A stretch of 44,482 nucleotides of DNA from Escherichia phage EcoPhCCP1. Numbering within the stretch: the first letter of the stretch is position 1; the number at the start of each line of letters is the position of its first letter. Below the pieces are notes generated by a model, which ran no database searches, was not told the DNA's origin, and saw only the letters and a program-made list of their open reading frames with translations. Made by a program: the position numbers and the translations under genes. Below are positions 20,141 to 41,750 of this stretch, piece by piece. The DNA lies in the sequence record PQ384582.1. One strand, written 5' to 3'.

Positions 20141-20167
20141 AAGGCCCCAAACGGGGCCTTAGTTTTA
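20141..20167. terminator. bidirectional rho-independent terminator between the replication and tail operons
   Basis: AAAAGGCCCC-AAAC-GGGGCCTT with T-runs on both strands. Confidence 0.75.
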
Positions 20168-22156
20168 CAGGGCCGCCATAATAAAACAAAGAAGTTCCTC
20201 ATAGCGCACGCCGAAGTTTTCACCTGCCTCTAAGGTGCATCTCTTTTCCCCGGTGTCGTACTCTTCCTCGACTTCAATCGTCTTAGTGGTAGTAATAGTT
20301 TTGCCGGTTAGGTCGTCTATTTCCGTTACTTCTTGGTCCTTAAGTACGGTACGCTTAGCCATGATTGGCTCATACTTAGCGTCCCAGGTATCGTGGCAGT
20401 AGAAAGCGTACATTTCAGGGTCCAGTCCATGCTTACGCAAAATTTTACCTATAGATTGCGCACCTACGCCAAAATGGTATCTGGCATCGTTGCCTTTCTC
20501 GGAGATAGCATCTTTGAATCTAAATTTCCATATGTCATTCTTTATTTCCATGGCCGCGGCACGTTCGGCTTCAAGTATCTTATCCCGTACTTTGAGGTCT
20601 TCATTTGATGTGTTTATCGCCCCGGTTCCCGCGTATACCACAGACCACCGACGAGACGCGGTGCCATTCGATATGGTATTGTCCGTAGAGGGCCTTATGT
20701 TGGCGGCGGCTATGACTTCGGTAGAAGCATTAAGCTGAATAACACCCGCGTTAACCCCATAAGTGCCTTGCCCGGAAGACGACGCCCCGCCGCTAACTAC
20801 AACCCTTGCATCATAATCGTTAGGGTTTCCGCTTGAGTGAAAGTCTATGTATGCTGTACCTGAGGCTGTGGTGCTTCCCAGTCCGATAGCAGACCCAGAA
20901 GCGCTCATGATTAATTTATCGTTCTGTAAATTAACGTCTCCGGATGTTAAAATAGTAGTTGAGCACTTTGGTATCTCGAACCCAGATGCGATCGACGTCA
21001 CATCGGTAAACGCTACAAGTATTTTGCTGTCCGATGCCAACGCGTGTCCCCCATTCATGTTCCCTATACGAAAGGCGTTTCTCCATCGGACCGTAGCTGT
21101 CGAAAGATTCGACAAGGCAACCCCAACGTCTACGGCGCTCCCTCGTACAGCCCCACCACCAATGACCTGAATCCCTGACCTATACCATACAGACGACCCT
21201 TCGGAGGCTACTGTGTTAAACTCACATGCGGTCACGTTATATACACCAACGGCGGATGGGCTCAAACTACCGTACATATTCCCGCCAAAGTACCCACCTT
21301 TGAATGTGCTCGGGGACGTTGATACTGCCCCTCCGTCGCCATTTTGCGACACTGCCAACCCAACCACACCCACATAGTTACGGTCCGGGTTGTCGGCACT
21401 GGTAGGTGATTTATGGGTAGATACAAATTCTGCCGCGTGCCTGCCACCTTTGGCTGCGGTGCCGCCGAAAACATGGTTTACCTGTAGCCCGTCAACTTTT
21501 GTCCCGGCCGTTAAATCGTCAACAGCATTAACCTGGTCGTCTATGATAGCAAGGTAGTTAAATTTTGCAGTGCCGGCGTTGGGTATAGTGCCAGTGATAG
21601 GGTCCGTAAGGATAACTCCTATCCCATATGTCATACCATCGTTTTGATACTCCCCGGTTCTCCCTTGCATGATAGAAAACTTATCGTTTCCGCGGGACAT
21701 TACACCTGGACCAATCAATGATGCTCCACCAAAAGCAGCCAGGTCCTGTCGTAAAATAACACCTCCAACCGACAACCATGCGCCGTCGCCTACACCGCCT
21801 GAGGTTGACGGTGTTGACGCCGCGGGGATAGTCTTCGGTAAACTACCAGCCCAATAGTACCAATCCCCATCCCCCCCATCAGTCGAAGGCCACAGCACCG
21901 CCTTGTTTCTATCGTCCGTAGTTAATGTTCCACCAGTTGTGAAATCAAAAGATGCTGGGGCTAGGCCCAAGCTACGCAACACCGCGGGTAGCGTCTTCTG
22001 ATTCTGCCCTGTAACCTGGTTTGTCGCGTAATCAATATCTGCACCCCCGGCTACTCCGCCAGATTTACCGGTAATTACCTCTGCTTCGAAAATCTGGTGT
22101 TTCTTGGCGGTTTGTAAATCCGCCAGGCTTAAAACATCACCGCATCCGCTTGACAT
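20165..22156 (-). CDS. tail fibre/tailspike with C-terminal intramolecular chaperone (peptidase S74-like) domain
   Basis: Gly-rich beta-helix-like middle; C-terminal SNEDLKVRDKILEAERAAAMEIKNDIWKFRFKD...ARYHFGVGAQ...EMYAFYCHDTWD. Confidence 0.7.
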   Translation of the reverse strand: MSSGCGDVLSLADLQTAKKHQIFEAEVITGKSGGVAGGADIDYATNQVTGQNQKTLPAVLRSLGLAPASFDFTTGGTLTTDDRNKAVLWPSTDGGDGDWYYWAGSLPKTIPAASTPSTSGGVGDGAWLSVGGVILRQDLAAFGGASLIGPGVMSRGNDKFSIMQGRTGEYQNDGMTYGIGVILTDPITGTIPNAGTAKFNYLAIIDDQVNAVDDLTAGTKVDGLQVNHVFGGTAAKGGRHAAEFVSTHKSPTSADNPDRNYVGVVGLAVSQNGDGGAVSTSPSTFKGGYFGGNMYGSLSPSAVGVYNVTACEFNTVASEGSSVWYRSGIQVIGGGAVRGSAVDVGVALSNLSTATVRWRNAFRIGNMNGGHALASDSKILVAFTDVTSIASGFEIPKCSTTILTSGDVNLQNDKLIMSASGSAIGLGSTTASGTAYIDFHSSGNPNDYDARVVVSGGASSSGQGTYGVNAGVIQLNASTEVIAAANIRPSTDNTISNGTASRRWSVVYAGTGAINTSNEDLKVRDKILEAERAAAMEIKNDIWKFRFKDAISEKGNDARYHFGVGAQSIGKILRKHGLDPEMYAFYCHDTWDAKYEPIMAKRTVLKDQEVTEIDDLTGKTITTTKTIEVEEEYDTGEKRCTLEAGENFGVRYEELLCFIMAAL

Positions 22157-22168
22157 ATAGAGTCCTCT

Positions 22169-24715
22169 TTAATTAAAACCATTGCTGAATCCGTCGGAGA
22201 AACCGCGGCCTAAAGGTGCGACGCCGTCGTATTTATAGAATCCGTCGTCATAGTTGTAGCCAGTAATCTTGACCGTGCGGTCATCGCCCGGGTCTATTGA
22301 AGAAACAACTATCTTCTGAGCATTATGCCTTGCTTCGTTGCCGAATGAAAACTCAGTTTTTAGCGCGCTATTCCCCGTGTAGATTGCCTCCTCCGGCGCG
22401 GAGAGCATAACCACTTCGCGGTCATGACTTCCTTTGATAACGGAGATACTCTGTACGGAGCCGTCGCGCTTCTTAAGAATGATGGAGTGGTCGTCTCCGG
22501 GGGTAAACGTAACAGGCTGGGACAATGTCAGTGTAAGCCCATTAACGGCAACAACATAACCATCTTGCGGCGCAATGCGAGAGCCTTTAACAACGCTGAT
22601 TACCCCGCCGGGGGTGGCGAGCGCACCTTCTTCCGTAGCTTCAAACTCTACGACAACTTTACTTAACGTGTTGCGCTGGTAGCGGCGCCACGCCAGCCAG
22701 TACGCCTGCTGGTAGTTGCGCACCCCCTTCGATTCGTACTCCTCGGTGTTTGCGCCGAGTTCTTCCGGGATATAAATCGTTTCCTGTACGTTAGTATCAG
22801 GGTCAATGTACGAGAACGACAGGCTATCGTAGGTTGTCGAATCGTTGAACGTGCGGGTCCATTTCTCCGTACCAGTTGTCTTACTGCGGTGGGTGAATAC
22901 CATTTCAGGCCCCGCGACAGGACGGTCGAATCGCAGCATAATATCCGCGCCTTTACGGTACGCAGTACAGAACACGGCTTCCGCTATGGTCTGAACGATG
23001 TCCTGCATCGTGGTGTCGTAGTCGTCGAACGTGTAGCAGAACTGCCCCGCTAATTCACTTCCGAAATAGGACTCGATTTCTTCCTGCACGGATAGTAACT
23101 TATCCATGTTTGCCGTTGTCAGTTCCAGATTACCCACCGCTGGGTCGCGCGCCAGCCTGATTAGCGACTGCACGGCCTGAGTGTTTGGTGTCATTACCGT
23201 ATCGAATACCCCATTGCCTAAGTATTTGTAGCACATCTCGGTCGCGATCATGCGCAGTTCAGGGTTATCGATACTGGCAGCGCGCGGCGTCTGTTTACGG
23301 GCACAATGTACGGTAGTTCGGTTGCCGTAGTGTGGGGTTGTGTCCAGTGACTGCCCGTACAGGTTGATGAAGGTTATCTCGTCACTTACCGTCCCGTCGT
23401 AGTCCTTGTCGAAATTCGTTACGCGGCGCATGCGGGCACGGAAACGAGACGCTGTCGGCAATTGGCCATAGATAGACGTACCGACGTAATCCGTATTGTT
23501 GCCTGTAATTGTAGCCTGTACCGTGTAAATATCGCCCAACGGGTTACGCTGAGAGTCAATCATCTGATACTGGAGTTCTACGGTTACGCTGGTACGGTTA
23601 TAGCCGCCGTCGTATTTGTAGAGGCCGTTCTGCCCGGCAACGTTAGCAAGTACCCGGTCAACTTCTCCGCGTACCATGTAATACCAGTCCGTAAGAGATA
23701 CGTCATAGGTGTTGCTCGGGCCGATAAACGTATCTGAACGCTCTGTTAGCGTGTACGTCTGTCCGCTGGTCAACGCGGCCCAGTTAGACGCACCGTTTAC
23801 GGCTAATCTTACTTCGAAGTCGTCAACGTATAAAACCTCAAACGAGCCGTTCAGGTTAGTGACATCAGCAACGTCAAAGTTGCTCAGCACCGCCACATCA
23901 CCGACGCTAAGAAACTCAGAAAAAGCAGAGTCTCCTGACGGGTCATAGATGTAGCCGGTGTTTGAAATACGTTTAGCGGTGCCGTCGGCGCTTGGGTTGG
24001 CCCCGATGTCGTTCGGCGCTTTCAGTACAATACCGTCAACGTCGTCGTTGGAGTACGTCACATAGAGTTTCTGGTCAATGACGTCGCCGATTTGTAGTTG
24101 CGGGGTAGTTGTATTGTTTGGTGATGTATAGGGGGCGTACACGGCAACAGAAGAACCTGTGATGTCGCTTATCAGGGTGTCGCCTTCCGTGACGCCATCA
24201 GCCTCAATATGCAGATGCCCGCGACCAGCGTCATAGTACGAATACTCCAGCAAAGCACCAGTGGAGTTGAACGCCTTGTACGTCTGCATAAGGTCGTTAG
24301 GGATTGTCTGCACAGTCCCGCATATGTCATAAGAGCGCTCGTAAGGACGCGGCTTGTTGGAGCGGTCTGTTAGGCTGTTATTAGCGGATTTTGCTTGGTT
24401 ATTTGTCGCTGTTACCGCCAGACTCGGTTTCTTAGTTAGTAAAACCGTAGCCGCAACGACGACCAAAGCAACAAGCGCACCTACTACAAGCGCACCTCCA
24501 CCAGCTCCTTCTACTATGTGATACACCGCGTCTTCGTCTTTAAGCGCGTCGAAGTCGTCAGTGATATCGGTGTCGTCACCAATCTCACCGAGATATACGC
24601 GCACAGGAACGCCGTCAGGGATATGGTTGACAACAAACTCCATTGGCATCCCGACGTGTTTTGTACGGTCGAAAACACCGTTAGCATTTCGCGTGTAGTG
24701 CAGGATTATCGCCAA
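22169..24715 (-). CDS. tail tip / host-specificity protein (gpJ-like central fibre)
   Basis: 848 aa directly downstream of the tape measure and minor tail genes; N-terminal ~100 aa has a Gly-rich hydrophobic segment and may be a fused upstream ORF. Confidence 0.55.
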   Translation of the reverse strand: MAIILHYTRNANGVFDRTKHVGMPMEFVVNHIPDGVPVRVYLGEIGDDTDITDDFDALKDEDAVYHIVEGAGGGALVVGALVALVVVAATVLLTKKPSLAVTATNNQAKSANNSLTDRSNKPRPYERSYDICGTVQTIPNDLMQTYKAFNSTGALLEYSYYDAGRGHLHIEADGVTEGDTLISDITGSSVAVYAPYTSPNNTTTPQLQIGDVIDQKLYVTYSNDDVDGIVLKAPNDIGANPSADGTAKRISNTGYIYDPSGDSAFSEFLSVGDVAVLSNFDVADVTNLNGSFEVLYVDDFEVRLAVNGASNWAALTSGQTYTLTERSDTFIGPSNTYDVSLTDWYYMVRGEVDRVLANVAGQNGLYKYDGGYNRTSVTVELQYQMIDSQRNPLGDIYTVQATITGNNTDYVGTSIYGQLPTASRFRARMRRVTNFDKDYDGTVSDEITFINLYGQSLDTTPHYGNRTTVHCARKQTPRAASIDNPELRMIATEMCYKYLGNGVFDTVMTPNTQAVQSLIRLARDPAVGNLELTTANMDKLLSVQEEIESYFGSELAGQFCYTFDDYDTTMQDIVQTIAEAVFCTAYRKGADIMLRFDRPVAGPEMVFTHRSKTTGTEKWTRTFNDSTTYDSLSFSYIDPDTNVQETIYIPEELGANTEEYESKGVRNYQQAYWLAWRRYQRNTLSKVVVEFEATEEGALATPGGVISVVKGSRIAPQDGYVVAVNGLTLTLSQPVTFTPGDDHSIILKKRDGSVQSISVIKGSHDREVVMLSAPEEAIYTGNSALKTEFSFGNEARHNAQKIVVSSIDPGDDRTVKITGYNYDDGFYKYDGVAPLGRGFSDGFSNGFN

Positions 24716-25071
24716 AATTCAATCTCCGTGTACAAGTCTCTTAGGTCAACAAGCCTGTCAAGCCGTACCTGACGGGAGGCCATTTCGCAATGACTAACCA
24801 TTCCGTCAAAGTAGACCCCGGCGTGCCACACGATTCTGCCGCCGCGGCGCCTACCCATAAGAACCGCGCACAAGTTTTCAGGCTTATCAATTTTCGTAAG
24901 CCCCTTCGTGTCACGATGGCCTTCATCAAACGCTTCGTTAATTGCCGTTGGGCTTGTAGCGTCGAACGCCGGGGTTGCTAACCCGGCATCCGCACGGACA
25001 ATACGCACATGATGCCAGCAATTGCGTTTGCGAAAGTCGTAAGGTATTCCCGTGTAGTCGTTAATGTTCAT
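24706..25071 (-). CDS. tail assembly protein, NlpC/P60-like (gpK-like)
   Basis: GIPYDFRKRNCWHHV...H pattern resembles NlpC/P60 Cys-His; position in tail tip cluster. Confidence 0.45.
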   Translation of the reverse strand: MNINDYTGIPYDFRKRNCWHHVRIVRADAGLATPAFDATSPTAINEAFDEGHRDTKGLTKIDKPENLCAVLMGRRRGGRIVWHAGVYFDGMVSHCEMASRQVRLDRLVDLRDLYTEIEFWR

Positions 25072-25598
25072 GTGATTAACAGACCGCGTAATAACGGTAT
25101 CTCTTTAGGTGTCATAAGTATACCAGTGCTTCGTTGGTTCAGCATAGGCGTCCCTAAATTAGCAGAGAACCGCCCCTTGTCCTGAGCTATGGTCTGCACC
25201 TCATATACCACGGGGCCATCTGCCGGGTATGACAGGTCGGTGCTGACATAACGGCGAAATATGAACTTCGGCAACTCAGTGCTATCCATCGGAATATTAT
25301 CCAGCTCATCGTCCAGTAAATTTCCGACGTCAGGAAGGGTAAACGTCGTCGTCTGGTCCATGTCGTTATTGTTAGCGGCCCCCGACGCCTCCATCGGGGT
25401 TGGTTCGAACGTGATTGTTTCGCCTGTCTCCAGCGTTGCCGTAAGTTCCTGCAGTCCGCGCACAAGATAGTACGTCTTTGACAGCAACGGGTGGCTGACT
25501 TGCAACGTGATGTAGTCCATCTCGCCGTCGGGATTTGAGGCCAGCTTACGGCGATAGGCGGCTTCTACTGATTCCTGGCTCATTGCATCGGGTCCCAA
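25068..25598 (-). CDS. minor tail protein (gpL-like by position)
   Basis: Position between tape measure and tip genes; no motif recognised. Confidence 0.4.
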   Translation of the reverse strand: MGPDAMSQESVEAAYRRKLASNPDGEMDYITLQVSHPLLSKTYYLVRGLQELTATLETGETITFEPTPMEASGAANNNDMDQTTTFTLPDVGNLLDDELDNIPMDSTELPKFIFRRYVSTDLSYPADGPVVYEVQTIAQDKGRFSANLGTPMLNQRSTGILMTPKEIPLLRGLLIT

Positions 25599-26080
25599 AT
25601 TCGTGGAAACGTTGATTGCGCGGTTCCGTAGGCTTTAAGGAAACATCCCAGCCCATCACCATAGCAACCATACAAGTCCGGCAGATTGTTAACAAGGCAC
25701 TGGTTCTCAAGGTTCTGGAACGGCGATTTCTCTGCGGTTGCCGTGAAAGTAATAGTCCAGTTGACCCCGTCTTCGGTGGACTCGGCGATGGTTGACGTGA
25801 TTGTTACCTGATAATCCTCAATACCCATTCCGAAGTCATGCGCCATCCAGAAACTTGACGCACCGCCATCGACTTTCTCGAGGAACGACAGAAACGCCTG
25901 CCGCCCTAGTGCTGAGGTAATCAGGGTTACGCTTATTGGGAACACGTCGTAATACGTGTCGCGACCCTGACGCACCCCGCCACCGGCTAAATCAACGCTC
26001 CAGACGTTGTTACGTCTGGTCATTGAGTAGCCTTTTGACACCACCGGCTTAAGGCTACGTGGAAAAAATAAGTCAGTCAT
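25580..26080 (-). CDS. minor tail protein (gpM-like by position)
   Basis: Immediately downstream of the tape measure gene. Confidence 0.4.
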   Translation of the reverse strand: MTDLFFPRSLKPVVSKGYSMTRRNNVWSVDLAGGGVRQGRDTYYDVFPISVTLITSALGRQAFLSFLEKVDGGASSFWMAHDFGMGIEDYQVTITSTIAESTEDGVNWTITFTATAEKSPFQNLENQCLVNNLPDLYGCYGDGLGCFLKAYGTAQSTFPRIWDPMQ

Positions 26081-28419
26081 TATTTGAACCCCGGCGCATT
26101 TCTTGTGGCCTTTCGGGCCTTGCTAATCTTACTGTTGCTGTTCTGCAAAGAGGCAGCCACTTGCTCTTCGATGATGATACGCAAACGGCCTTCATCATCT
26201 TGTTCAGTGGATACGTTGCCAATCTGACTCGATGTGTTATTTACGATGGTAACATTAGATGTGCCAGAAGAAGACCCGTTTTGCCCCATAATTTCTTTCA
26301 TCTGCTGCGCGGTACGAACACGCGATGCCCCAGCGGGCATGATAACTTCGGGTTTACCACGTTCCGCGATGGTGGAAGCCTGCCCTGCGGATAACTGACC
26401 ACCCTGTTCACGCGCAGACCTGATAGCGGAAACCTGCGCCATACCTGCCCCAACGGCAGCAGCAGCAGCTACCGGTGCAAGGAACGGTCCGACAACCGGG
26501 ATAGCAGCAGTTGACTTATATGCCTCAATAGCTGCGGTGTACGTAGCGATAGTGGCTTGTACGATAGCGAACGCTTTATAAGCGCCAGATGCTTCACCTA
26601 ACGCGGACCCAATGTTGGATGCCATATTGCCAAAAGCTGTTGCCGTTGCGTCAGCACGCTTGGTTGCGTACTGTTCGTTGATGGCGTTAAGCGCAGCCTG
26701 GTATTGTTCTTCATTAATAAGACCCTGTTCCCGGTACTTATCCGCTACCGCCAGTTTCTGCTGTTCCTGAATATCCAGAAGCTCAAGCTCGGTGGCATTC
26801 TGGCCCATAATCTGAGCCATGAAATCGTCACCTTTCTGTTGCTTTTCCTGGGCCTCCTTCCTTTTCTTGTCCAGTTCTTCCTGGCGGGCCTGCTCAGCGG
26901 ATAACATAATCTGCGTCTTGGCGTTTTCGTATTGCTGGTCGCTAAGAAGCTTATTGCTATAGAAATCCTGCAACTTAGACAGTTGCTCTTCCTGGTTAGC
27001 TTCTATTTTCTGGAATACGTCATCATTAAGATGGATTGACTGATAGTAGAAGTCTTCCGCCGCTTTTTTCTGGCGCTCGAACGCGTCCGCTGCTTTCTTA
27101 GCGGCTTTTGCGGAGGACCCGTCATCGTCAGAACCGCCACCAGTTCCGGTTACCTTAAATTTGTTTAACCCCTCAGCTTTTGCGGATTCCTTATCGATGT
27201 CATATGCCGCGCGTTTTAACGCTACAATATCCTGTTGAGCTTCTACCTGTTCGCGGAAACTTTTACGCGTAACGTCGGCGACATCGCGCTGGGTATCCAA
27301 AGCCAAGCCAAGCTGGAAGTTGATATTTTTAGCTACGTCTACTGATTCCCCGGGGGTGAAAGCGGCTCGTACAAGACGGCCCGCGTCCTGCGCACCTTTA
27401 ACCATATCTTCAAAGAATCTCTCCATCGCGGTGAACTCTTCCGCGATGAAGTCAAGCGCATCGGCAGCGGATTCCGCGATGGTGGTAGCTGTTTGTCCTC
27501 CGCTATCGGTAATACTCTTGCTGCTGAAATCCCACAGTTCATTAAGCCCGTTGATGGCGTCGCCGACAAAGCCAAACGCAGCGTCGAATGACATCTCGAT
27601 AGCGCTTCCTACTTCCGACGCGATGTCGCCCCACATCTGCATTTCAGCGGCTAATTCACCGGAAGCAACAGACGCGTTTAATTCCTGAATCAAGTCATCG
27701 ATATACCTGATAGGTTCAGCAAGTGCGCCAACATCAAGACTGGTGGCAAGCGTCATTTTTAGCTGCGACCATGAGTCACTGGCACTCGCGATAGCGCCAT
27801 TAAGGGTGTTGGCTTGGTCCGCCATAGCCCCCGCAAAATTTACGTTACCAATATTGAGTAAATACTGCTCGATATCGGCAGCGCTTTTCTTAACTACCGT
27901 TGTCGTTCCCTGGAACGTAAACTCTACGTCGTTTTTGTTCTGCTTGGCTTTGATGCCGAATTCTTTGAGGCGTTCGAACTCGAACGTACTGGCGTCGGCT
28001 ACCGCCTCAATCATCTGATTAAGGTCCTTACCCATAGCCGATGCGGTATTGCCGTAGGACCGCAACGCCTCCTCGGATGGGGTAAGGCCCAGAGCCACCA
28101 GCTTACGGAAGCCTTCCACCGCCTGCTCAAGCCCGTATGGGGTGTCGCGCGCAAAATCTTGCAGGATACTAAGCGCCTGTTTAGCGCCCTGGGTACTTCC
28201 GGTTAAGGTCTTCAAACTAGCGGACATCTTGTCCAGTTGCCGCTGTGAGTCAACCAGTTCTTGCGCGGCTTTATATGCGGTAGCCGCTACGATAGAAGCA
28301 AGGCCTGCTACAGCGGCCCCCGCTACTTTTGCGGACTTTGAAAGGTTGTCAAGACGGTCTGACGTGGCTTTCGCGCCTTGCTCTGATACTTTTACGACTA
28401 AACTAGCTACATCAGCCAT
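26080..28419 (-). CDS. tail tape measure protein
   Basis: 779 aa, Ala/Gln/Glu-rich helical protein downstream of the chaperone pair. Confidence 0.8.
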   Translation of the reverse strand: MADVASLVVKVSEQGAKATSDRLDNLSKSAKVAGAAVAGLASIVAATAYKAAQELVDSQRQLDKMSASLKTLTGSTQGAKQALSILQDFARDTPYGLEQAVEGFRKLVALGLTPSEEALRSYGNTASAMGKDLNQMIEAVADASTFEFERLKEFGIKAKQNKNDVEFTFQGTTTVVKKSAADIEQYLLNIGNVNFAGAMADQANTLNGAIASASDSWSQLKMTLATSLDVGALAEPIRYIDDLIQELNASVASGELAAEMQMWGDIASEVGSAIEMSFDAAFGFVGDAINGLNELWDFSSKSITDSGGQTATTIAESAADALDFIAEEFTAMERFFEDMVKGAQDAGRLVRAAFTPGESVDVAKNINFQLGLALDTQRDVADVTRKSFREQVEAQQDIVALKRAAYDIDKESAKAEGLNKFKVTGTGGGSDDDGSSAKAAKKAADAFERQKKAAEDFYYQSIHLNDDVFQKIEANQEEQLSKLQDFYSNKLLSDQQYENAKTQIMLSAEQARQEELDKKRKEAQEKQQKGDDFMAQIMGQNATELELLDIQEQQKLAVADKYREQGLINEEQYQAALNAINEQYATKRADATATAFGNMASNIGSALGEASGAYKAFAIVQATIATYTAAIEAYKSTAAIPVVGPFLAPVAAAAAVGAGMAQVSAIRSAREQGGQLSAGQASTIAERGKPEVIMPAGASRVRTAQQMKEIMGQNGSSSGTSNVTIVNNTSSQIGNVSTEQDDEGRLRIIIEEQVAASLQNSNSKISKARKATRNAPGFK

Positions 28420-35016: not shown

Positions 35017-35018
35017 TT

Positions 35019-35531
35019 TTAACCCCGGTACACGTTAAACGAGAAGCCATTGTTAAGACCGCCACACAGTAACGGGCGTAAGGCGTCGTCGGCAGCGGTA
35101 ATGGCAGTTGTAGCGCCACTGTTACCGTTGTTGAAGTATGTCACCGTCACCGCACCCTCCACACGCTCGGTCTGCACAGAGCGCCCATCGGAGTTAGCCC
35201 GCACTTCCGTACCTGCGCCATAAGTAGTGGCAGCGATCACCTGCGCAAGAATTATCTGTTTCGGGATAACACTGTTCGCTACAGGGAAGCCATTTAACGT
35301 TACGCCGGTGCGAGGATACGCAAGAGACTGTTCTGCCGACACGCGTCTACCGCACATCTGCGGTTCTGCAAGCCCGACATAAGTAGCACCGTTGCGCAGG
35401 GCCACCTCTGCGGCGGTATCATCTGCCGGTAACTCAAGGCCATAATTAGCCGCTAACGCGCGGGCGTCAGCCAGGCTAATGTAACTGTCAGCGCCAGGTA
35501 CTATTGACCCATCTTCCACGATTAGCGGCAT
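35019..35531 (-). CDS. head-tail adaptor/connector protein (by position)
   Basis: Gene order downstream of capsid/decoration genes. Confidence 0.4.
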   Translation of the reverse strand: MPLIVEDGSIVPGADSYISLADARALAANYGLELPADDTAAEVALRNGATYVGLAEPQMCGRRVSAEQSLAYPRTGVTLNGFPVANSVIPKQIILAQVIAATTYGAGTEVRANSDGRSVQTERVEGAVTVTYFNNGNSGATTAITAADDALRPLLCGGLNNGFSFNVYRG

Positions 35532-35534
35532 AAA

Positions 35535-35714
35535 TTATTCCTCTGACTTACGGCGGCGACGCTTAGTACCACCACCGTTGTTGTGCGCTTCTTCGCTGTC
35601 CGGTTGAACCGCTACCAGTTCATCCGCTTCTACCGCACCGCGAACAGGCATCACCTGACCGTCAACAATATCAACGTGGGTGTACTTTTCACGGATTACA
35701 TAATTATCTGCCAT
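35535..35714 (-). CDS. hypothetical protein (59 aa, below cutoff)
   Basis: Translated by hand: MADNYVIREKYTHVDIVDGQVMPVRGAVEADELVAVQPDSEEAHNNGGGTKRRRRKSEE; AAGGAAAGG SD. Confidence 0.4.
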   Translation of the reverse strand: MADNYVIREKYTHVDIVDGQVMPVRGAVEADELVAVQPDSEEAHNNGGGTKRRRRKSEE

Positions 35715-35750
35715 GACCTTTCCTTATTACGGCCCCGAAGGGCCGTTGCA

Positions 35751-36095
35751 TTAAGACACAGTTGCTACGGTGCTACTGGAGATAATATTACCATATACAT
35801 CGTGAACAACCACTTTATACGTGCCGGAGTCGGCAGACGCGACAGTGGTGGCTTTGGTGTAGGTAGCCGCAGTAGCGCCCGCGATAGCGTTGTTGTTCTT
35901 GTACCACTGGTAAGTGTACGGAGCCAGACCGCCAGTTACGGTTACAGTAAGGGTTAGCGCGCCAGGTGGGCTTACTGTGGTAGTCGCCGCGAGTGGGGTG
36001 GAAAAAGATGCAGGGGCGATATTCGCCATATCGATTTTAGCGCCTACGGTATCTGCGGACACACCGGTAATACGACGTTTGATTACATCAACCAT
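35751..36095 (-). CDS. Ig-like domain protein (putative head decoration)
   Basis: YTYQWYKNN...GTYKVVVHDVYGN is an Ig-like (I-set/Big) pattern. Confidence 0.5.
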   Translation of the reverse strand: MVDVIKRRITGVSADTVGAKIDMANIAPASFSTPLAATTTVSPPGALTLTVTVTGGLAPYTYQWYKNNNAIAGATAATYTKATTVASADSGTYKVVVHDVYGNIISSSTVATVS

Positions 36096-36106
36096 TTTTA
36101 ATCTCC

Positions 36107-36478
36107 TCAGGATGCGATGATTTTAGCGGCACGAAGCTGCGCCAGAAGTTCGTTTAGTTTAGTGCCTACCGTGTTAACCGCGGTCTGTGCGGACGTAGCG
36201 ACCGCGGCGGCCTCTTCACCAGTAACGGTCTGCGCGCCGGCGTCTGTAACCGCAGCACCCTGGACGAACTTATTCCCGGCCATCGCGGTAGTCGAAGTTG
36301 TTCCGATCACAAGGCTTGACGTACCCGCACCAATAGCGGTACGTGCCGCCTCTTGGGTCGCCCCCGCGGCGATTGCCGCCGGTTTACCTGTTACTTCTTC
36401 CCAGCCTACGCTGATATCCAAGTCGCCGAAGTCGACATTCTGAAGGCTGCGCGGCAAGCCTTTTCCGGTCTTAGCCAT
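36107..36478 (-). CDS. hypothetical structural protein
   Basis: Ala/Thr/Gly-rich 123-aa ORF immediately downstream of the capsid gene. Confidence 0.4.
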   Translation of the reverse strand: MAKTGKGLPRSLQNVDFGDLDISVGWEEVTGKPAAIAAGATQEAARTAIGAGTSSLVIGTTSTTAMAGNKFVQGAAVTDAGAQTVTGEEAAAVATSAQTAVNTVGTKLNELLAQLRAAKIIAS

Positions 36479-36537
36479 AAATTACCTCTTAGTAAATGAA
36501 AAGAGGGACCGAAGTCCCTCTCGATTATATATTAACC

Positions 36538-37587
36538 TTAAGCACCGACACCAGTTACCAGAAATGCAATCGGTACATGCTTACGATCAACAACGCGGTT
36601 CCAGTTGGAGGCGTTCGCCAGGTCCTGCCAGGAGGCAGAACGTGCGACAGTCTCGGTGCCGTTGCCGGTGATTACCGCGCTGGTGAAGCTGTAACCAAAC
36701 GGGTGCAGCAACCATGTCTTACGGGTCCACAGGGTTTCGACGCCGCCGCCGTTACCACGAGACGCTTCGCGTTCGTATTCCAGCGGGTTAGACGGATTGC
36801 CTTCACCATAACCGATAGCTCCGTTGCCGAAGATGATGGAGATGAACTTGCGGCTCGGGCCAGTTCCGACCACGGTCATGCTGTCGTCAACAATCACACG
36901 GTAGCCCTGGTAGGTGGCGAACAAGGTGTCGTTGTCGGCGTCTTTGATGAAGTCGATAAGTTGCTGCTTACGCGCCTGCGCATAAACGAAGCTGTGCATC
37001 GCGATAGCGCCCAGCACTTCACCGCCGTTGCCCATCAGCGCATCGCCCATAGTCTGGGTAGCGTCGATGAATGCGCCCGCGTCGAAGCCCAGAGAAGCAG
37101 ACACGTCGATAACCATATCGTTCTGCGTATGGTATTCATCGGTAGCGGCTACGTTGTCGTTGTACAGACCGAGCGCGGTAGCAATCAGACGGCGTTGCGC
37201 CTGGCGCTGCCAGAAGTTATCCAGACGGGCCGCTACGGAGCGCAGCGGCTGCTGACTGGTCAGTTCGACGGTCAAATCCGCCTGGCCGAAACCTTCGTTC
37301 AGGTAAGCTACACGAACATCCATCTCACCGGTCTGCACGTTACGCGGGGTAGCGATGTCCTGGTATACGTCGTTCGAGTAGTTCGGCTCGATAGAGGTGT
37401 CAATCGCTTTCCAGTACGGCAGAACCGCTTTGTTGGACGGGCCGTTAGCGATAGCAGCGGCGTACGGAGTCTGGGTCAGAATACCGGACTGGAAGAACGC
37501 GGTTTTTTCTACCGGGTCCTCGGTCATGTAAGACAGAATTACCGATTCTTTACCAGTTACGATATCGCCAATAGTAGTAATTGCCAT
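36538..37587 (-). CDS. major capsid protein
   Basis: 349-aa ORF immediately downstream of the scaffold-like gene. Confidence 0.7.
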   Translation of the reverse strand: MAITTIGDIVTGKESVILSYMTEDPVEKTAFFQSGILTQTPYAAAIANGPSNKAVLPYWKAIDTSIEPNYSNDVYQDIATPRNVQTGEMDVRVAYLNEGFGQADLTVELTSQQPLRSVAARLDNFWQRQAQRRLIATALGLYNDNVAATDEYHTQNDMVIDVSASLGFDAGAFIDATQTMGDALMGNGGEVLGAIAMHSFVYAQARKQQLIDFIKDADNDTLFATYQGYRVIVDDSMTVVGTGPSRKFISIIFGNGAIGYGEGNPSNPLEYEREASRGNGGGVETLWTRKTWLLHPFGYSFTSAVITGNGTETVARSASWQDLANASNWNRVVDRKHVPIAFLVTGVGA

Positions 37588-38345
37588 TATTTTTTCCTCA
37601 GGGCTTTAAGTTGCCGTTCAAATTCGGCAGGGTTCGATTCGTACAGAGCGATACGCTCCGCTTCACTCATGTCTTTAAACGCTGGTGCGGCCCCGCCGCC
37701 TTTGCCACCGGAAGCCCCGCCGCCGGAAGCTGCATTTGCTTTAATCAAATGCGAAAACGCTTTGTGTTCACGCAGATATTTGCGGAACTGTTCCGGGTCA
37801 GTCGTGATTACGTTGCCGTCTGCACCAACAAACTTAGTAACCACATCATCGCCTTCGAACTCAGTCTTAACGAACGGTGCAAGAATGTCCACTGCTTCAG
37901 GGGTGATGAAGTCACCTGCGAAAGAGCCTAACACCGCTTTACGTTCGCTGCCGAGGATGCGCTCTGCCATTCTGGAGATGCAACCATCTTTCTCGGCCAG
38001 CACCGGGTCATACTGGCTACGAATCGTTTTTTCGAACTCGTCCATCTTACCGGCGGCTTTTAGTGCCTCCTGGTGCGCGCGCTGCCGTTCTTCTTCGGCC
38101 TCTTTTGCTTTACGAGCGGCTTCTTTCTTCTCCGCCAGCAATGCTTCCTGATTAGCCTTAAGACCGGCGACTTCTTTCTCAATCAGCGCCTGAACTTCTT
38201 CGGCTGTGAACATTTTTGGCGCGTCACCGCCACCAGCTTTATCTTCTGCCCCAGCTTCTTCCTGGAACGGATAACGTAAAAAACGATTCATAGTCAGTAT
38301 GTCCCCTGGACGTTGGAACCCGGGCCACCCGGATTTACATGTCAA
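37587..38345 (-). CDS. capsid scaffolding protein
   Basis: Helical, charged, Ala/Glu/Lys-rich; immediately upstream of the capsid gene; true start probably an internal Met. Confidence 0.6.
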   Translation of the reverse strand: MTCKSGWPGFQRPGDILTMNRFLRYPFQEEAGAEDKAGGGDAPKMFTAEEVQALIEKEVAGLKANQEALLAEKKEAARKAKEAEEERQRAHQEALKAAGKMDEFEKTIRSQYDPVLAEKDGCISRMAERILGSERKAVLGSFAGDFITPEAVDILAPFVKTEFEGDDVVTKFVGADGNVITTDPEQFRKYLREHKAFSHLIKANAASGGGASGGKGGGAAPAFKDMSEAERIALYESNPAEFERQLKALRKK

Positions 38346-38373
38346 GAATAAATTATTCCAACATGCAAGGCAA

Positions 38374-38637
38374 CTATTCCAGAATATTCCTCACGTAATC
38401 CTGCAACATGAACACTTTCAGCCTCAGCTGCCGTACGCATTCGGCGTTCTGGACGTCGATAGCTAAATCCTCGTCAGCGTCGCTACTTGGCGGCGCCAGT
38501 TTGCACGGAGGCTGCATCATTGTCGTATCCGGGGATGGAATTGGCGTTTGCGACGGCGCGGGACTTGAGCAGGACGCGAGCATCGTCGAAAGTGCACACG
38601 CTGCGGCCAGGCGTTTTAATGTACTTAACGACTTCAC
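38374..38637 (-). CDS. o-spanin (Rz1-like outer-membrane lipoprotein)
   Basis: Signal peptide with lipobox LASC, Pro-rich mature region; starts inside the i-spanin gene in another frame. Confidence 0.7.
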   Translation of the reverse strand: MKSLSTLKRLAAACALSTMLASCSSPAPSQTPIPSPDTTMMQPPCKLAPPSSDADEDLAIDVQNAECVRQLRLKVFMLQDYVRNILE

Positions 38638-38869
38638 GGGTAATCACCTCTGATTTCGTCTTGCCTTCGTTGTCGGCGGCTGCGGCCTTCGATTCATCTT
38701 GCTGCTGCCGTTGTGTTTTCTTCGCTAACTCAGCCTGTGCTTTCTGCTGTTGCTGCGAAACGAGATTCGCCCGGCCTTCGTTCCAGCCGCTGTGATACTG
38801 GTAGATGCCGTGTGCGTAAGCCAGGATGGTGAAACATGCTCCTGCTACGACAGTTGCTTTAAGATTCAT
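38483..38869 (-). CDS. i-spanin (Rz-like)
   Basis: N-terminal TM segment, Gln/Lys-rich coiled coil; AAGGAG SD; overlapped gene architecture with Rz1. Confidence 0.7.
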   Translation of the reverse strand: MNLKATVVAGACFTILAYAHGIYQYHSGWNEGRANLVSQQQQKAQAELAKKTQRQQQDESKAAAADNEGKTKSEVITREVVKYIKTPGRSVCTFDDARVLLKSRAVANANSIPGYDNDAASVQTGAAK

Positions 38870-38883
38870 GTTTCTCCTTTCTC

Positions 38884-38913
38884 GATAAGTAAAGCCCCGC
38901 CATAAAGCGGGGC
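38884..38913 (-). terminator. terminator/attenuator hairpin (minus strand) just upstream of the spanin RBS
   Basis: GCCCCGC-UUUAUG-GCGGGGC followed by UUUACUUAUC on the minus-strand RNA. Confidence 0.45.
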
Positions 38914-38979
38914 GCTAGTCCTTATCATTTAAACATAGAAACGGCGTAATCTCAGTAAACCAGTTACTTTTTACACAAG

Positions 38980-39121
38980 CAATAGAGTATGGCCCTTCCG
39001 AACGCGTCAGCGTAACTACACTCGGGACTTACGTCCGGCTCCGTTACCTGCCGCGCCGCGGTCGCTTGTTCATACTTCACAAGCTCAGGTGGAGCTTAGC
39101 ACATTTTCAGTGAAAAGTCAA
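38980..39121. repeat. non-coding repeat element, copy 2 (paralog of 7011-7156)
   Basis: Direct alignment with copy 1; conserved ends and core, variable middle with a 2-nt indel. Confidence 0.85.
39093..39121 (-). promoter_or_regulatory. promoter-like module in repeat copy 2: TTGACT-N17(TGn)-TAAGCT (minus strand)
   Basis: -35 TTGACT (39121-39116), 17-nt spacer, TGcTAAGCT; same architecture as 7128-7156. Confidence 0.4.
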
Positions 39122-39134
39122 CTATTCGAATAGT
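39121..39134. promoter_or_regulatory. perfect 14-bp palindrome ACTATTCGAATAGT abutting the -35 of the repeat-copy-2 promoter
   Basis: Read directly; half-sites related to the AATAG/CTATT dyad found in other promoters. Confidence 0.6.
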
Positions 39135-39187
39135 TTATTCCAACATTTACAATTCGGCGGAATACCTGGAATAGGTAAATAAATTGT

Positions 39188-39216
39188 TTGCACACCCCAA
39201 TATAATAGGGTACTAT
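39188..39216 (+). promoter_or_regulatory. phage promoter family member TTGCAC-N17-TACTAT (plus strand)
   Basis: 32 bp identical to 29301-29332. Confidence 0.6.
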
Positions 39217-39265
39217 TCATCTCAGCATACAACATGTTTAACCCATTAAATCGGGAGTATCTAAA

Positions 39266-39391
39266 ATGAACTACGCACCTCTTAAAAATAAATGTCGAGC
39301 TGCGGTTATCCGTAAAGCGTGGAGAGACGCTCCTGACTCACGTATTAAAAAGGTGATGCTTGAGTGGGCCGAAAGACTCAGCTTAACATAA
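39266..39391 (+). CDS. small basic protein (41 aa, below cutoff), moron
   Basis: Translated by hand: MNYAPLKNKCRAAVIRKAWRDAPDSRIKKVMLEWAERLSLT; GGGAG SD; own promoter and terminator. Confidence 0.4.
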   Translation: MNYAPLKNKCRAAVIRKAWRDAPDSRIKKVMLEWAERLSLT

Positions 39392-39395
39392 AACT

Positions 39396-39420
39396 AAGGC
39401 CCCGTTACGGGGCCTTTTAT
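39396..39420. terminator. bidirectional rho-independent terminator
   Basis: AGGCCCC-GTTAC-GGGGCCT followed by TTTT. Confidence 0.7.
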
Positions 39421-39881
39421 CATTCTGGCTTCGTAACCTTCGCCGCTTTACTTACGGCCTCTACACCATCGGCATCGGTAACCTTGACGAAGTATTCACC
39501 GACTGCATTAACTGTCAGAGACAGAGCTTCTTCTGGAGCGTTTACCACTTCCTTCCCGTCTTTGTACCAGGTCAAGGTATACGGTGCTTTGCCCGCCTTA
39601 ACTTCGACAGTGATAGTTGCGCTGCCGTCCACCAGTTCAGCGTCTTTTGGTTGCGCCGAGAAATACACGTCGCCAGCGTCCGCCAGATACGGAATCTCGT
39701 AAAGCATACCAGCCGCGGGGAGTGCAATACCGGTTTTATCTGCAAACGGCATGTCGTCTACTGGCGTACCTAGTACACTTTCATCTCCAATAAACACCAC
39801 GTTCTCGCCGGAGCCAGACACGCGAGCATACTGGACTACGCGACGCGACGGTACGTCAGTTACTTTGAAAAAGCCCATCAT
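39420..39881 (-). CDS. Ig-like domain structural protein
   Basis: C-terminal Ig-like pattern (YTLTWYKDGKEV...GEYFVKVTDADG). Confidence 0.5.
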   Translation of the reverse strand: MMGFFKVTDVPSRRVVQYARVSGSGENVVFIGDESVLGTPVDDMPFADKTGIALPAAGMLYEIPYLADAGDVYFSAQPKDAELVDGSATITVEVKAGKAPYTLTWYKDGKEVVNAPEEALSLTVNAVGEYFVKVTDADGVEAVSKAAKVTKPE

Positions 39882-40924
39882 TAATCCCCTTTCAGATAAT
39901 CAGCAACACGTTTATCGAGTTCCGCCATCTGCTTAAGCGTGAGCGGATTCCCGAAACCATCTACAGATATTACGCGAAACTCTTCCGGCGATATACCGCT
40001 GTTACGGAAAATCTTACCGCGAACAGGACCTAGCGCCTGGTCCTGAAACCATGCCGGTTGTTGTTTAAGGAACTCGTAATAGGTGGTGTCTGCGCTTACC
40101 TGAGTACCACCTTCTGCGCCCTTAGCCGCGCGTTTTGCGCCCTTATCCAGGAAATCGAACTCGGAACTGATTACGGGCGCACTGGTGCTTCGACAGCCAA
40201 AATGCGCGGGGGGCATCGGCCCTTTACCGATTTCCCACGTCATTCCATCCCTAGCTCTACAAATTGTGCTGGTACGGCTGTCCAACGTCGATACCCATTC
40301 GTACTTCTCGATGATGTCGTCGTTCTGGCGGTACGTCTCGTTGCGGGCTTCGTTAGATACATGCGACAGCGCAGTGTGGATTACCGTAGCCGCGTTGCGT
40401 TCAGAGATGTCAGCCAGTCCGCCAGCGCCTACGACATTCTTAACAATCTGCCGTGTGGTTTGACCTTGTACGAAACCAATCTTAACGCCTGTTATCAGGC
40501 GCGCGACCTCCGTTTCACCCCAGCCCGACATCAGCTTAGTGAAGTCGACTGGTTTGTCGCTTAATGATAACGGTTGAAACGCGGCAGCAGCCCACACCTG
40601 CTCAGCGGTGGGCGTAACAAATTCCGCGTTAACGTTGGCGTTAAGTGTCTTTACGTTCCACTCCGCCTCGTACGCCGCCAGTTCCTTAAGGTCTTCTGTC
40701 AGCTTTGTCTGCCAGTCGCCTGTAATCCCCGCCAGTGCTTCTCCAAGGTCGCGTAACAGCTTATTCAGACGCGCGGTGCTTCGCCCGTCGTCACCGAATA
40801 ACAGAACCTGCCGTTTGATTTCGTTCCGCATTTCCTGAATGAATGGTGCGAGGTCTTTTACTTCACCGGATGCGGCGCGTTGCAGCCAAATCTGGTGGCT
40901 GATTAGAGATGTCAGTAAGCTCAT
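39881..40924 (-). CDS. head morphogenesis protein (Mu F / SPP1 gp7-like minor head protein)
   Basis: TICRARDGMTW...HFGCRST motif pattern; positioned after the portal gene. Confidence 0.7.
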   Translation of the reverse strand: MSLLTSLISHQIWLQRAASGEVKDLAPFIQEMRNEIKRQVLLFGDDGRSTARLNKLLRDLGEALAGITGDWQTKLTEDLKELAAYEAEWNVKTLNANVNAEFVTPTAEQVWAAAAFQPLSLSDKPVDFTKLMSGWGETEVARLITGVKIGFVQGQTTRQIVKNVVGAGGLADISERNAATVIHTALSHVSNEARNETYRQNDDIIEKYEWVSTLDSRTSTICRARDGMTWEIGKGPMPPAHFGCRSTSAPVISSEFDFLDKGAKRAAKGAEGGTQVSADTTYYEFLKQQPAWFQDQALGPVRGKIFRNSGISPEEFRVISVDGFGNPLTLKQMAELDKRVADYLKGD

Positions 40925-41009
40925 ATACCCTCCTGTTTCGATATGACAATCATATCAGTCGGTAACGTATTGGCATAATCATTCGCATTTAAGGTTAAAA
41001 AGAGCTTGA

Positions 41010-41039
41010 TTAAATTCTACATTTGAATGTAGAATTTAA
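41010..41039. promoter_or_regulatory. 30-bp dyad TTAAATTCTACAT-TTGA-ATGTAGAATTTAA upstream of the KilA-N gene (candidate operator)
   Basis: Read directly: perfect 13-bp arms with a 4-nt centre, 28 bp before ATG 41067. Confidence 0.7.
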
Positions 41040-41066
41040 ACGTACACTTAAACAGGAGAAATACGC

Positions 41067-41720
41067 ATGAAACTGCAAACATTAGAGTTCCCTTATGGAG
41101 AAATCACTTTTGACCGTGAAAACTTTATTAACGTAAACGAGCTGGTTGACCAGATGAACCGTTGGCGTTTAGACAACGGCATGGGGACAAGAGAGCTTCG
41201 CCAGGTCATGGCAACGGATGGCTTCAAGATTTTCAAGGAGGAATGCGAAAAACAACTCGGAATCGAGAATGCCATAAGGGCGACGAAAGGCCGAAACGGT
41301 CGCACCTTTGCATGTCTCCATCTGGCAGTATATATTGCTGAGCAATACAGCGCCTATTTCCATTTCCTCGTTATCGACCGCTTTATCACACAACGGCAGG
41401 TAGAACTACGAAACATTGGCGCGGTGAGCTTTGTCGAGCTTAACGCTGCCGTTAGTCGAATGATTGAGCGCACGGAGGGAAGAATTGGCCACAGTGGACA
41501 CTTCATACAGGTGGCTAAAGCGGTAAAGGAATCCGTAGATATCCGCGACGTAACGGGTTTCGATACATGGGACTCTCAGGATGCGAAGACCAATCAGTTG
41601 CGAAGTGACATCCAGAAAGCTCTGGTGACACTTCTTGACATGGAGGCCGTTAATACATGGGGTGAACTGAAAGAGGCGATACCTCGGGTTGTGCGTAAAT
41701 GTGCGGCTAATATACGTTAA
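41067..41720 (+). CDS. KilA-N domain protein (moron)
   Basis: GRNGRTFACLHLAVYIAEQYSAYFHFLVIDRF resembles the KilA-N/APSES core; opposite strand to the flanking structural genes. Confidence 0.55.
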   Translation: MKLQTLEFPYGEITFDRENFINVNELVDQMNRWRLDNGMGTRELRQVMATDGFKIFKEECEKQLGIENAIRATKGRNGRTFACLHLAVYIAEQYSAYFHFLVIDRFITQRQVELRNIGAVSFVELNAAVSRMIERTEGRIGHSGHFIQVAKAVKESVDIRDVTGFDTWDSQDAKTNQLRSDIQKALVTLLDMEAVNTWGELKEAIPRVVRKCAANIR

Positions 41721-41724
41721 AGCT

Positions 41725-41750
41725 AAGGCCCCTAGCGGGGCCTTTCTATT
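41725..41750. terminator. rho-independent terminator after the KilA-N gene
   Basis: AGGCCCC-TAGC-GGGGCCT followed by TTCTATTT. Confidence 0.65.

Follow-up and report, generated by a model that had tools for sequence, protein, structure and literature searches.

Predicted bidirectional intrinsic terminators at convergent gene ends of Escherichia phage EcoPhCCP1 and their probable role as boundaries of the genome mosaic

Gene arrangement and the repeated hairpin

Here we analyze a stretch of 44,482 nucleotides (nt) of Escherichia phage EcoPhCCP1 (PQ384582.1), referred to below as the window, in which a GC-clamped hairpin, embedded in a longer conserved module, recurs where genes on opposite strands converge. 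The window belongs to the genus Kagunavirus (Guernseyvirinae; K1G-like E. coli siphophages), with 87-90% nt identity to the nearest records by megablast, and its orientation is reverse relative to phage Golestan. Kagunavirus has been described as a lytic genus (PMC7203180), and the lineage is virulent, as neither an integrase nor a lysogeny module is annotated in three relatives. A search for tRNA genes in the window gave none. The comparison set consisted of 70 portal-anchored and 73 helicase-anchored IMG/VR loci, together with three GenBank genomes.

The strand map, which is based on the list of open reading frames (ORFs) and the annotation of three relatives, contains ten strand switches, five of them divergent and five convergent (Table 1). 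The module lies at four of the five convergent switches and at none of the divergent ones; the preliminary description, made from the sequence alone, had the module bounding every strand switch, which overstated its distribution, since the convergent junction 10096/10114 has another hairpin. At the module-bearing pairs the stop-to-stop gap is 28-32 nt and is nearly filled by the module. The only four plus-strand units of the window that start at a divergent promoter region (the replication operon, a five-gene nucleotide-metabolism/immunity island, an ORF of 41 amino acids (aa) and an ORF of 217 aa) all end at a module, and so do the four minus-strand units that face them.

The pattern AAGGCCCC-N3-5-GGGGCCTT has four exact matches in the window, with loops of four or five nt, and was absent from 100 dinucleotide-preserving shuffles (mean 0.00, maximum 0). 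The near-identical hairpins that had been described at 20141, 31947, 39396 and 41725 are thus borne out, except that 31947 is the start of an A-run and the stem itself begins at 31950; the relative claimed near 14196 is also present. Each hairpin had been said to be flanked by A-runs and T-runs. One side is indeed A-rich and the other T-rich, but the flanks are not symmetric: one reads TAAAACTAA (TAAAGCTAA at 41725), and the other reads (stop)-RGAAAA or ATAAAA. The module is oriented and longer than the stem, its canonical form being TAA-AAC-TAA-GGCCCC-N4-5-GGGGCC-TTTT(T/C). Its first TAA serves one gene as stop codon, and another TAA in the same frame lies directly against the stem. On the non-canonical side the sequence is (stop)-RGAAAA-AGGCCCC or ATAAAAGGCCCC. 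A repeat finder recovered AAAAGGCCCC-loop-GGGGCCTTAGTTTTA on the plus strand at 20139 and 31948 and its reverse complement at 39389 and 41718. In the window and 147 loci, the flanks orient 112 of 134 hairpins, with TAAAACTAA dominant on one side.

On the canonical side stand the tailspike gene, the tail tube gene (Pfam Phage_tube_2), the 41-aa ORF and the 217-aa ORF. They face, respectively, the gene that closes the replication operon, the final ORF of the 29361-31941 island, a gene for a Hoc-like decoration protein and the portal gene.

TABLE 1 Coordinates of the modules, other hairpins, promoter-like elements, cassettes and strand blocks of the window.
Feature	Position	Strand	Description
Module at 20141	20134-20167	canonical on -	From TAG stop of + ORF 19999-20136 (final replication-operon gene) to TTA (= TAA) stop of - tailspike gene 20165-22156; hairpin 20141-20160, AAGGCCCC-AAAC-GGGGCCTT
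Module at 31950	31939-31976	canonical on -	From TGA stop of + ORF 31735-31941 to TTA stop of - tube gene 31974-33146; hairpin 31950-31969, AAGGCCCC-GAAA-GGGGCCTT
Module at 39396	39389-39422	canonical on +	From TAA stop of 41-aa ORF to TCA stop of - Hoc-like decoration gene 39420-39881; hairpin 39396-39416, AAGGCCCC-GTTAC-GGGGCCTT
Module at 41725	41718-41752	canonical on +	From TAA stop of 217-aa ORF to TTA stop of - portal gene 41750-43219; hairpin 41725-41744, AAGGCCCC-TAGC-GGGGCCTT
Related hairpin	14195-14214	+	AAGGCCC-TTCATT-GGGCCTT, then TTTTTAC; 7-bp stem, 6-nt loop
Hairpin of the fifth convergent junction	10106-10124		AAGGGGC-GTTAA-GCCCCTT at junction 10096/10114; unrelated to the module
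Promoter-like element	6823-6859	+	TGAATAGTATCCTATTATGTTGGGGTGTGCAA; divergent junction 6804/7068; start of + replication operon ending at 20141
Promoter-like element	29300-29336	-	Divergent junction 29193/29361; start of + island 29361-31941 ending at 31950
Promoter-like element	39188-39219	-	Right end of the cassette at 39396; 32 nt 100% identical to 29301-29332; start of + unit ending at 39396
Cassette at 39396	39173-39416	+	Promoter-like element 39188-39219, 41-aa cargo ORF 39266-39391, terminator module
Cassette at 41725	40925-41749	+	Back-to-back promoter-like sites, 217-aa ORF 41067-41720, terminator module
Strand blocks	113-6804; 10114-10329; 20165-29193; 31974-38869; 39420-40924; 41750-44482	-	
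Strand blocks	7068-10096; 10456-20136; 29361-31941; 39266-39391; 41067-41720	+	

Predicted termination on both strands

An intrinsic terminator consists of a GC-rich stem-loop (stem of about 5-14 bp, loop of 3-8 nt) followed by a 3' U-tract. At the modules, the RNA of either strand forms the identical 8-bp AAGGCCCC/GGGGCCUU stem, and overall the stems are 8-9 bp long with six G-C pairs and loops of 3-5 nt, the minimum free energy being -15.4 to -20.4 kcal/mol on both strands. Compared with shuffled sequences, the modules fold with z-scores of -2.4 to -5.2, and only 0-4 of 200 shuffles fold equally well. In the canonical direction, counted from the GGGGCC arm, the tails are UUUUCUCU, UUUUUCUC, UUUUAUCA and UUUCUAUU, that is, UUUU(U/C); in the opposite direction the tail is UUAGUUUU at three sites and UUAGCUUU at 41725. 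To the left and to the right, 3-8 nt separate each hairpin from the stop codon. On the plus strand, a simple terminator scan flagged 31950, 39396 and 41725, and 39396 was flagged on the minus strand as well.

A stable GC-rich stem-loop, an adjoining U-tract and a site just past the stop codons are thus found together, on both strands and between convergent genes, and by these features the four modules are predicted to be textbook bidirectional intrinsic terminators. The earlier claim that the hairpins terminate both strands fits the anatomy, with its GC-clamped 8-bp stem, U-rich tail in both transcripts and convergent stops, while the function itself is a prediction.

The hairpin at 14195 is placed differently from the four modules, as its neighbors, the genes for a single-stranded DNA-binding protein (13546-14175) and DNA polymerase (14235-16436), are both on the plus strand. 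Because the polymerase gene begins 20 nt later, the hairpin must be leaky or antiterminated, and because no promoter fits ahead of that gene, it is probably an attenuator. It is nearly invariant across Kagunavirus loci, and both of its flanks are conserved (48 loci aligned on the left and 53 on the right). In one relative (L003), an opposite-strand HNH gene (26392-27042) stands between tail genes and is followed by AAGGCCC-TTTC-GGGCCTT, which has the same stem as the hairpin at 14195.

This hairpin brings up the reading in which the repeats are mainly 3' stabilizers or processing sites, protecting transcripts from exonucleases or setting the stability of operon segments, with little termination. 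A relative of the module that lies inside an operon, ahead of a promoter-less gene, would be usefully read through, and the interruption of the U-tract (UUAG) in one direction of the module would agree with this. Stabilization and termination do not exclude each other, however, and read-through at the convergent junctions would give antisense RNA over structural and replication genes. Moreover, a putative promoter in the filled cassettes described below would restart the core gene downstream, and such a restart is needed only if the hairpin stops transcription. We therefore consider a mainly stabilizing role unlikely.

Homology breaks, cassettes and their slots

The distribution of the module bears on whether its four copies share a history. 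They might be look-alike terminators that arose independently, with no part in exchange: a simple GC clamp makes up the stem, convergent genes of E. coli are said often to have bidirectional terminators between them (Ju et al., 2019, cited in bioRxiv 10.1101/2022.10.23.513370), and replacement of cargo in one slot does not depend on a hairpin. Against such pure convergence, the copies also have in common TAA-AAC-TAA, which lies outside the stem and which termination does not need. A search of 2.9 million viral contigs for the 23-base extended pattern gave 79 stretches, with few exceptions on contigs of 40-45 kb, and 185,579 prokaryotic genomes gave only two stretches; nine of the 11 pattern-bearing loci checked share proteins with the window, and two (L149 and L162) do not. 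Owing to these counts, we regard the module as a lineage-specific sequence and neither a host terminator nor a chance product of GC clamping. The other hairpins of the window with stems of at least 7 bp (718, 6925, 10106, 36502 and 38894) have stems unrelated to the module, and distant relatives (63-74% portal identity) use many differing stems. These observations, together with the cassettes shared between slots (see below), leave pure convergence with little probability.

Two other origins of the module were rejected: a host origin, as there are just the two chance-level prokaryotic matches, and a repeat resembling repetitive extragenic palindromes or miniature inverted-repeat transposable elements, in view of the near-absence from the prokaryotic genomes and the fixed position between stop codons. 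In the open-access full-text literature, no earlier description of the module as a cassette boundary was found; Kagunavirus genome papers merely list ARNold terminators and PHIRE promoters (PMC7203180; PMC9825357).

At each of the four modules, homology with relatives stops abruptly. The comparison of cassette boundaries, which had been proposed as a check, was run, and alignment breaks pile up at each of them: 31-43 ends of high-scoring segment pairs fall within 25 nt of each module, compared with a median of 0 and a 95th percentile of 26 in 70-nt windows genome-wide. The numbers of loci aligning to the left and to the right are 33 and 2 at 20141, 3 and 38 at 31950, 0 and 44 at 39396, and 4 and 39 at 41725.

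At the tailspike site, 35 instances of the constant left flank AAGAGTAGAGAAAAGG and the module lead into 21 different 3' ends of the tailspike gene, every one of which finishes in TAAAACTAA, and the module stands after the tailspike gene in nearly all Kagunavirus and Jerseyvirus loci. Most of the 38 loci compared at the tube site have GCATAAAACTAAGGCCCC-loop-GGGGCCTTTT after the tube gene, even where portal identity is only about 63-75%, the exceptions being small variants and one locus without the hairpin (L008); the convergent partners of the tube gene fall into at least eight unrelated clusters. Of the four copies, those at the tailspike and tube ends are the ancestral ones.

The other two sites are filled in some relatives and empty in others. 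The Hoc site is empty in 11 of 40 loci, where a different hairpin, AAGCCCCGAAAGGGGCTT, is found; the remaining 29 hold at least one convergent gene, with 14 cargo clusters, and the module is always present. Between the portal and head-morphogenesis genes, 24 of 40 loci have a gap of 84-87 nt, in which the promoter motif CTTATAGTATGCTATTAAC comes directly after TAGCCCCGAAAGGGGCTTT. The slot is filled in 13 loci (288-1476 nt; nine cargo clusters among 12 instances), and the module seen at 41725 occurs only in these. In the filled portal alleles the last portal codons are replaced by ...CAGGAGTAA-AGAAAAAGGCCCC-loop-GGGGCCTTAGTTTTA, and most of them share the right end GTACCCTATTATATTGGTGTCTGCAAATATTATTTTTATGCG...ACAGGAGGGC-ATG. 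A search for cargo that had switched between the TAAAACTAA side and the other side returned only core genes that the orientation rule had classed both ways, and no new exchange; the same rule splits some Jerseyvirus sites into separate flank clusters. In three relatives (L010, L011 and L061), an insertion of some 700-900 nt, possibly an intein or intron, interrupts the head-morphogenesis gene itself; for phage Snoke, an intein in a capsid morphogenesis gene has been reported.

In the window, both of these slots are filled. By alignment, the cassette at 39396 replaces about 40 nt of the empty allele of L002. The GC fraction is 0.418 in this insert and 0.458 in the cassette at 41725, compared with 0.507 in the window, 0.560 in the portal gene and 0.532 in the head-morphogenesis gene. 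The 41-aa cargo had no match in PHROG and no nt match in 50,697 GenBank phage records; only the first 48 nt of its cassette, namely, the promoter element, matched these records, in 133 of them.

The cassette at 41725 widens the gap between the portal and head-morphogenesis genes to 825 nt, as compared with the typical 84 nt. Its plus-strand promoter-like site, TTGATT-18-TAGAAT (41006-41035), lies within the palindrome ATTCTACATTTGAATGTAGAAT, and a minus-strand site with a TG-extended -10 (40976-40949) could restart transcription of the head-morphogenesis gene. The 217-aa ORF occupies the same slot in two relatives, with 100% aa identity in L030, whose portal is merely 82% identical, and 88% in L027. 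Macdonaldcampvirus phages have the gene too, located among their tail genes (90% protein and about 79% nt identity), with its own promoter and with the hairpin AAAGCCCC-loop-GGGGCTTT, not the Guernseyvirinae module. The protein matches PHROG 6095 ("amidase") and, below threshold, Pfam KilA-N in its N-terminal half, and a sequence search of the PDB returned no relative. The "amidase" label, which belongs to the lysis category and appears in many records, may be annotation carry-over.

The promoter-like element of the cassette at 39396 has two further copies in the window (Table 1), and the same motif was listed by PHIRE as a "phage promoter" in fBC-Eco01 (PMC9825357). Toward the cargo it reads TTGCA(C/G)-N17-TACTAT (TTGCAC-N17-TACTAT at 39188-39216 on the plus strand, facing the cargo ORF), and toward the core gene it offers TATATT and no good -35. 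We infer that the element is a promoter, active in either direction; matches to the promoter consensus are no more numerous in the window than in shuffles.

Flank clustering revealed three cargo clusters that are present in both the Hoc and portal slots. Four of five slot-to-slot pairs compared by blastn align as a single block from the hairpin to the promoter element, with 88-91% identity over 268-862 nt, and the fifth aligns as two blocks of 91% and 84% identity. Examined base by base in three pairs, the homology starts at AAAAGGCCCC, a few nt past the stop codon of the core gene, and ends just past ...TGAATAGTACCCTATTAT(A/G)TTGG.GT.TGCAAA, with slot-specific sequence beyond. In filled slots the hairpin lies at one end of the cargo, and the promoter element TGAATAGTACCCTATTATATTGG.GT.TGCAA at the other. 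Because the homology starts at the hairpin and ends at the element, the mobile unit would consist of a two-way terminator, antisense cargo with its ribosome-binding site and a promoter element. That whole cassettes, hairpin included, are so similar across two slots is not what independent origins would give.

The preliminary description had suggested that the modules delimit morons acquired or maintained as promoter-gene-terminator cassettes. This suits 39396 and 41725, which belong to small, low-GC, opposite-strand insertions of that composition, absent from many relatives, and it gains from the finding of the same cassette in either of two slots, with homology running from hairpin to promoter element. 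It does not suit 20141 and 31950, which end conserved core units: at 20141 the replication operon meets the tail operon, and at 31950 the five-gene island meets the head-tail operon. Both modules keep these positions throughout the subfamily and are thus no moron boundaries.

The palindromes themselves also vary in an unusual way, their loops occurring as reverse-complement pairs: TTTC in 18 and GAAA in 10 cases at the tube site, and AAAC in 19 and GTTT in 7 cases at the tailspike site. Two relatives, L042 and L043, have exactly inverted loops (GAAA and TTTC), with three further substitutions in a 45-nt segment. Since one inversion is simpler than four point mutations, the palindromes seem to undergo strand switching or inversion at the DNA level, and these flips lend indirect support to the view that they are prone to recombination.

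Such flips may suggest that the module is primarily a DNA recognition site for a protein that moves cassettes (a structure-specific nuclease, homing endonuclease or recombinase), with termination being secondary. The stem is invariant across genera despite flanking genes that have diverged to about 75% nt identity, loop inversions are DNA-level events at the palindrome, cassette homology starts exactly at the hairpin, and HNH or Hef-like endonuclease genes occupy the same slots in some relatives. On the other hand, there is no integrase or recombinase in or beside the cassettes of the window, and the other end of the cassette is a promoter element instead of a second copy of the palindrome. 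The position at stop codons and the U-tracts on two strands are fully explained by termination, and both ancestral copies delimit core operons. A recognition site therefore seems to us an improbable main function.

Taken together, our analysis makes it probable that the repeats are bidirectional intrinsic terminators of a virulent Kagunavirus-like phage and, at the same time, fixed boundaries of its genome mosaic. RNA polymerase arriving from either side would stop at the module in vivo, and the stop would keep antisense transcription from the opposing unit. The ancestral copies at the tailspike and tube ends have been retained while the gene on one side was replaced. Each of the other two copies marks the left end of an antisense cassette that is complete in itself and has been inserted between core genes of one direction; its order is two-way terminator, cargo gene and promoter region, the last of which would restart the downstream core gene. 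The recurrence of the module is most likely due both to recombination through short regulatory sequences that the sites share and to selection favoring strong termination in two directions. The route could be template switching at the palindrome, or else the exonuclease and the annealing protein of the phage could recombine short homologies; in relatives, the positions of 11978-13228 and 13546-14175 are annotated as a RecE-like exonuclease and a Gp2.5/Enc34-type annealing protein, respectively.

More tentatively, and with less confidence than in the reading of the repeats as terminators and mosaic boundaries, we propose that the terminator module and the promoter element are the two ends of a family of portable antisense units. 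Such units would actively move among a few fixed Guernseyvirinae slots, either through template switching at the palindrome or through recombination in the 30-50 nt of regulatory sequence that they share, and they might pass through excised intermediates. If this is true, it would be a siphovirus counterpart of the gene shuffling by promoter-early stem-loops (PeSLs) in phage T4, and it would account for the way in which ORFans like the 41-aa gene are trialled while late-gene transcription goes undisturbed.

Several points weigh against the interpretation of the modules as two-way terminators and mosaic boundaries. The terminator scan left 20141 unflagged on either strand, because A-U closing pairs consume part of its U-run. 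Termination is only predicted, above all its efficiency in the direction of UUAGUUUU (UUAGCUUU at 41725), and the one Kagunavirus transcriptome paper found (PMC12645636) gives time courses at gene level. At the tube site, stem covariation is uninformative, as the stem is invariant in 21 unique aligned sequences apart from the register-shifted L044 and two single-base variants; because of this invariance in Kagunavirus and Jerseyvirus, no covariation shows that RNA structure, as opposed to DNA sequence, has been selected. At the fifth convergent junction, between a helicase-primase gene (7835-10096, plus strand) and a helix-turn-helix (HTH) regulator gene (10114-10329, minus strand), a different hairpin suffices. 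The cassette at 41725 has no copy of the shared promoter element. Finally, a cargo swap within one slot needs just ordinary recombination in the flanking core genes, so that only the slot-to-slot cases implicate the module, and five such pairs were examined.

As terminators, the modules are ordinary. The comparative result provides a testable picture of how accessory genes and tailspike ends may be gained and swapped in a widely used group of therapeutic-candidate coliphages and Salmonella phages, where exchange at standard regulatory parts would leave each inserted gene transcriptionally insulated. The module is also a compact candidate for a two-way terminator, and the portal/head-morphogenesis and Hoc/spanin slots may be regarded as natural cargo-tolerant sites in these phages.

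Other genome features and related systems

Two paralogous structured leaders of about 125 nt were found on the minus strand, at 38970-39095 and 7002-7130, with promoters TTGACTTTT...TGCTAAGCT (extended -10) directly upstream (about 39120-39092 and 7156-7128). They are situated about 55-60 nt upstream of terminator hairpins (38894-38913 and 6925-6941) and of the first gene of a long minus-strand operon. In 29 unique sequences of relatives, the internal hairpin covaries (GGAC/GUCC, GGGC/GCCC, GUGC/GCAC and CACG../..CGUG), as does the closing helix (UAAC/GUUA, GAAC/GUUC and AAAC/GUUU), and four of the 27 pairs predicted by RNAalifold show compensatory changes. No credible Rfam match came from scanning 38850-39450 and 6880-7200 by E-value. 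By layout alone, the leaders recall the two put antitermination RNAs of HK022 (PMC9378689). A search of the whole window at Rfam gathering thresholds gave no family at the terminator modules; its sole match, the int-alpA RNA (RF02996) at 29218-29282, lies on the minus strand, within the leader between the promoter element at 29300-29336 and the first gene of the tail operon, and scored 36.6 bits against a gathering score of 35.8.

A family of strong sigma70-like promoters, TTGAC(A/G)-N17-TATAGT, is present on the plus strand at 10393-10424, 13456-13487 and 17228-17259, with variants at 5445, 6821 and 10352. The palindrome of its spacer, AATAGT-nnn-CTATT, is the core of the divergent-junction element and may be an operator for a phage regulator, e.g., the HTH protein of 10114-10329. 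An exact 77-nt tandem duplication (111-187 = 188-264) lies inside a small-terminase-like ORF; relatives have a single copy of this stretch, and deletion of one copy restores a longer ORF. The duplication is probably an assembly artefact, since an exact overlap of 77 nt is typical of the untrimmed end of a circular contig at an assembler k of 77.

Several known systems resemble parts of this arrangement. Minute inversions associated with hairpins were reportedly described in chloroplast DNA by Kelchner and Wendel in 1996, and template switching at quasipalindromes is said to have been studied in E. coli by Ripley and Lovett. As in those systems, loops between perfect inverted repeats are found here in both orientations among close relatives (GAAA/TTTC and AAAC/GTTT); unlike them, the palindromes are predicted phage terminators, and the inversion mechanism is suggested by sequence comparison.

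The morons of lambdoid phages, reportedly introduced in 2000 by Juhala and co-workers and by Hendrix and co-workers, are approached by the segments 39173-39416 and 40925-41749. Each is an extra gene of deviant, low-GC composition between genes that are adjacent in relatives, with the module as terminator and a putative consensus-like promoter (TTGCAC-17-TACTAT and TTGATT-18-TAGAAT, respectively). By contrast, the units ending at 20141 and 31950 are conserved operons, the cassettes add a promoter that would restart a core gene, and expression from a prophage, which is part of the moron concept, does not apply to a virulent lineage.

Bidirectional intrinsic terminators of convergent genes likewise have a perfect GC-rich hairpin between convergent stops, with A-rich and T-rich sides, so that both transcripts end in a hairpin and U-tract. 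Here, in contrast, a single extended sequence recurs at four sites and is peculiar to one phage subfamily. The E. coli class of Ju et al. (2019), as cited in bioRxiv 10.1101/2022.10.23.513370, is said there to be unlike intrinsic terminators and to depend on polymerase collisions, whereas the modules of the window look intrinsic.

Along with the lambdoid morons, the closest analogues are the PeSLs of T4-type phages (Arbiol et al., 2010, PMC2839356; Comeau et al., 2014, PMC4122927). In both cases a repeated short terminator stem-loop and a sigma70-like promoter flank small non-essential ORFs, and the insertions, deletions and replacements that distinguish relatives are bounded by these elements; the empty slots described here, with a hairpin followed by a promoter motif, are also composites of terminator and promoter. 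Recombination between PeSLs yields excised mini-circles (PMC2839356). The differences are that PeSLs belong to T4-type myoviruses and the present elements, of unrelated sequence, to a 44-kb Guernseyvirinae siphovirus; that the terminator here is predicted to work in two directions; and that antisense cargo lies here between terminator and promoter, while PeSL ORFans are on the same strand, between two composite elements. The likeness would accordingly be one of the way of working, not of family membership.

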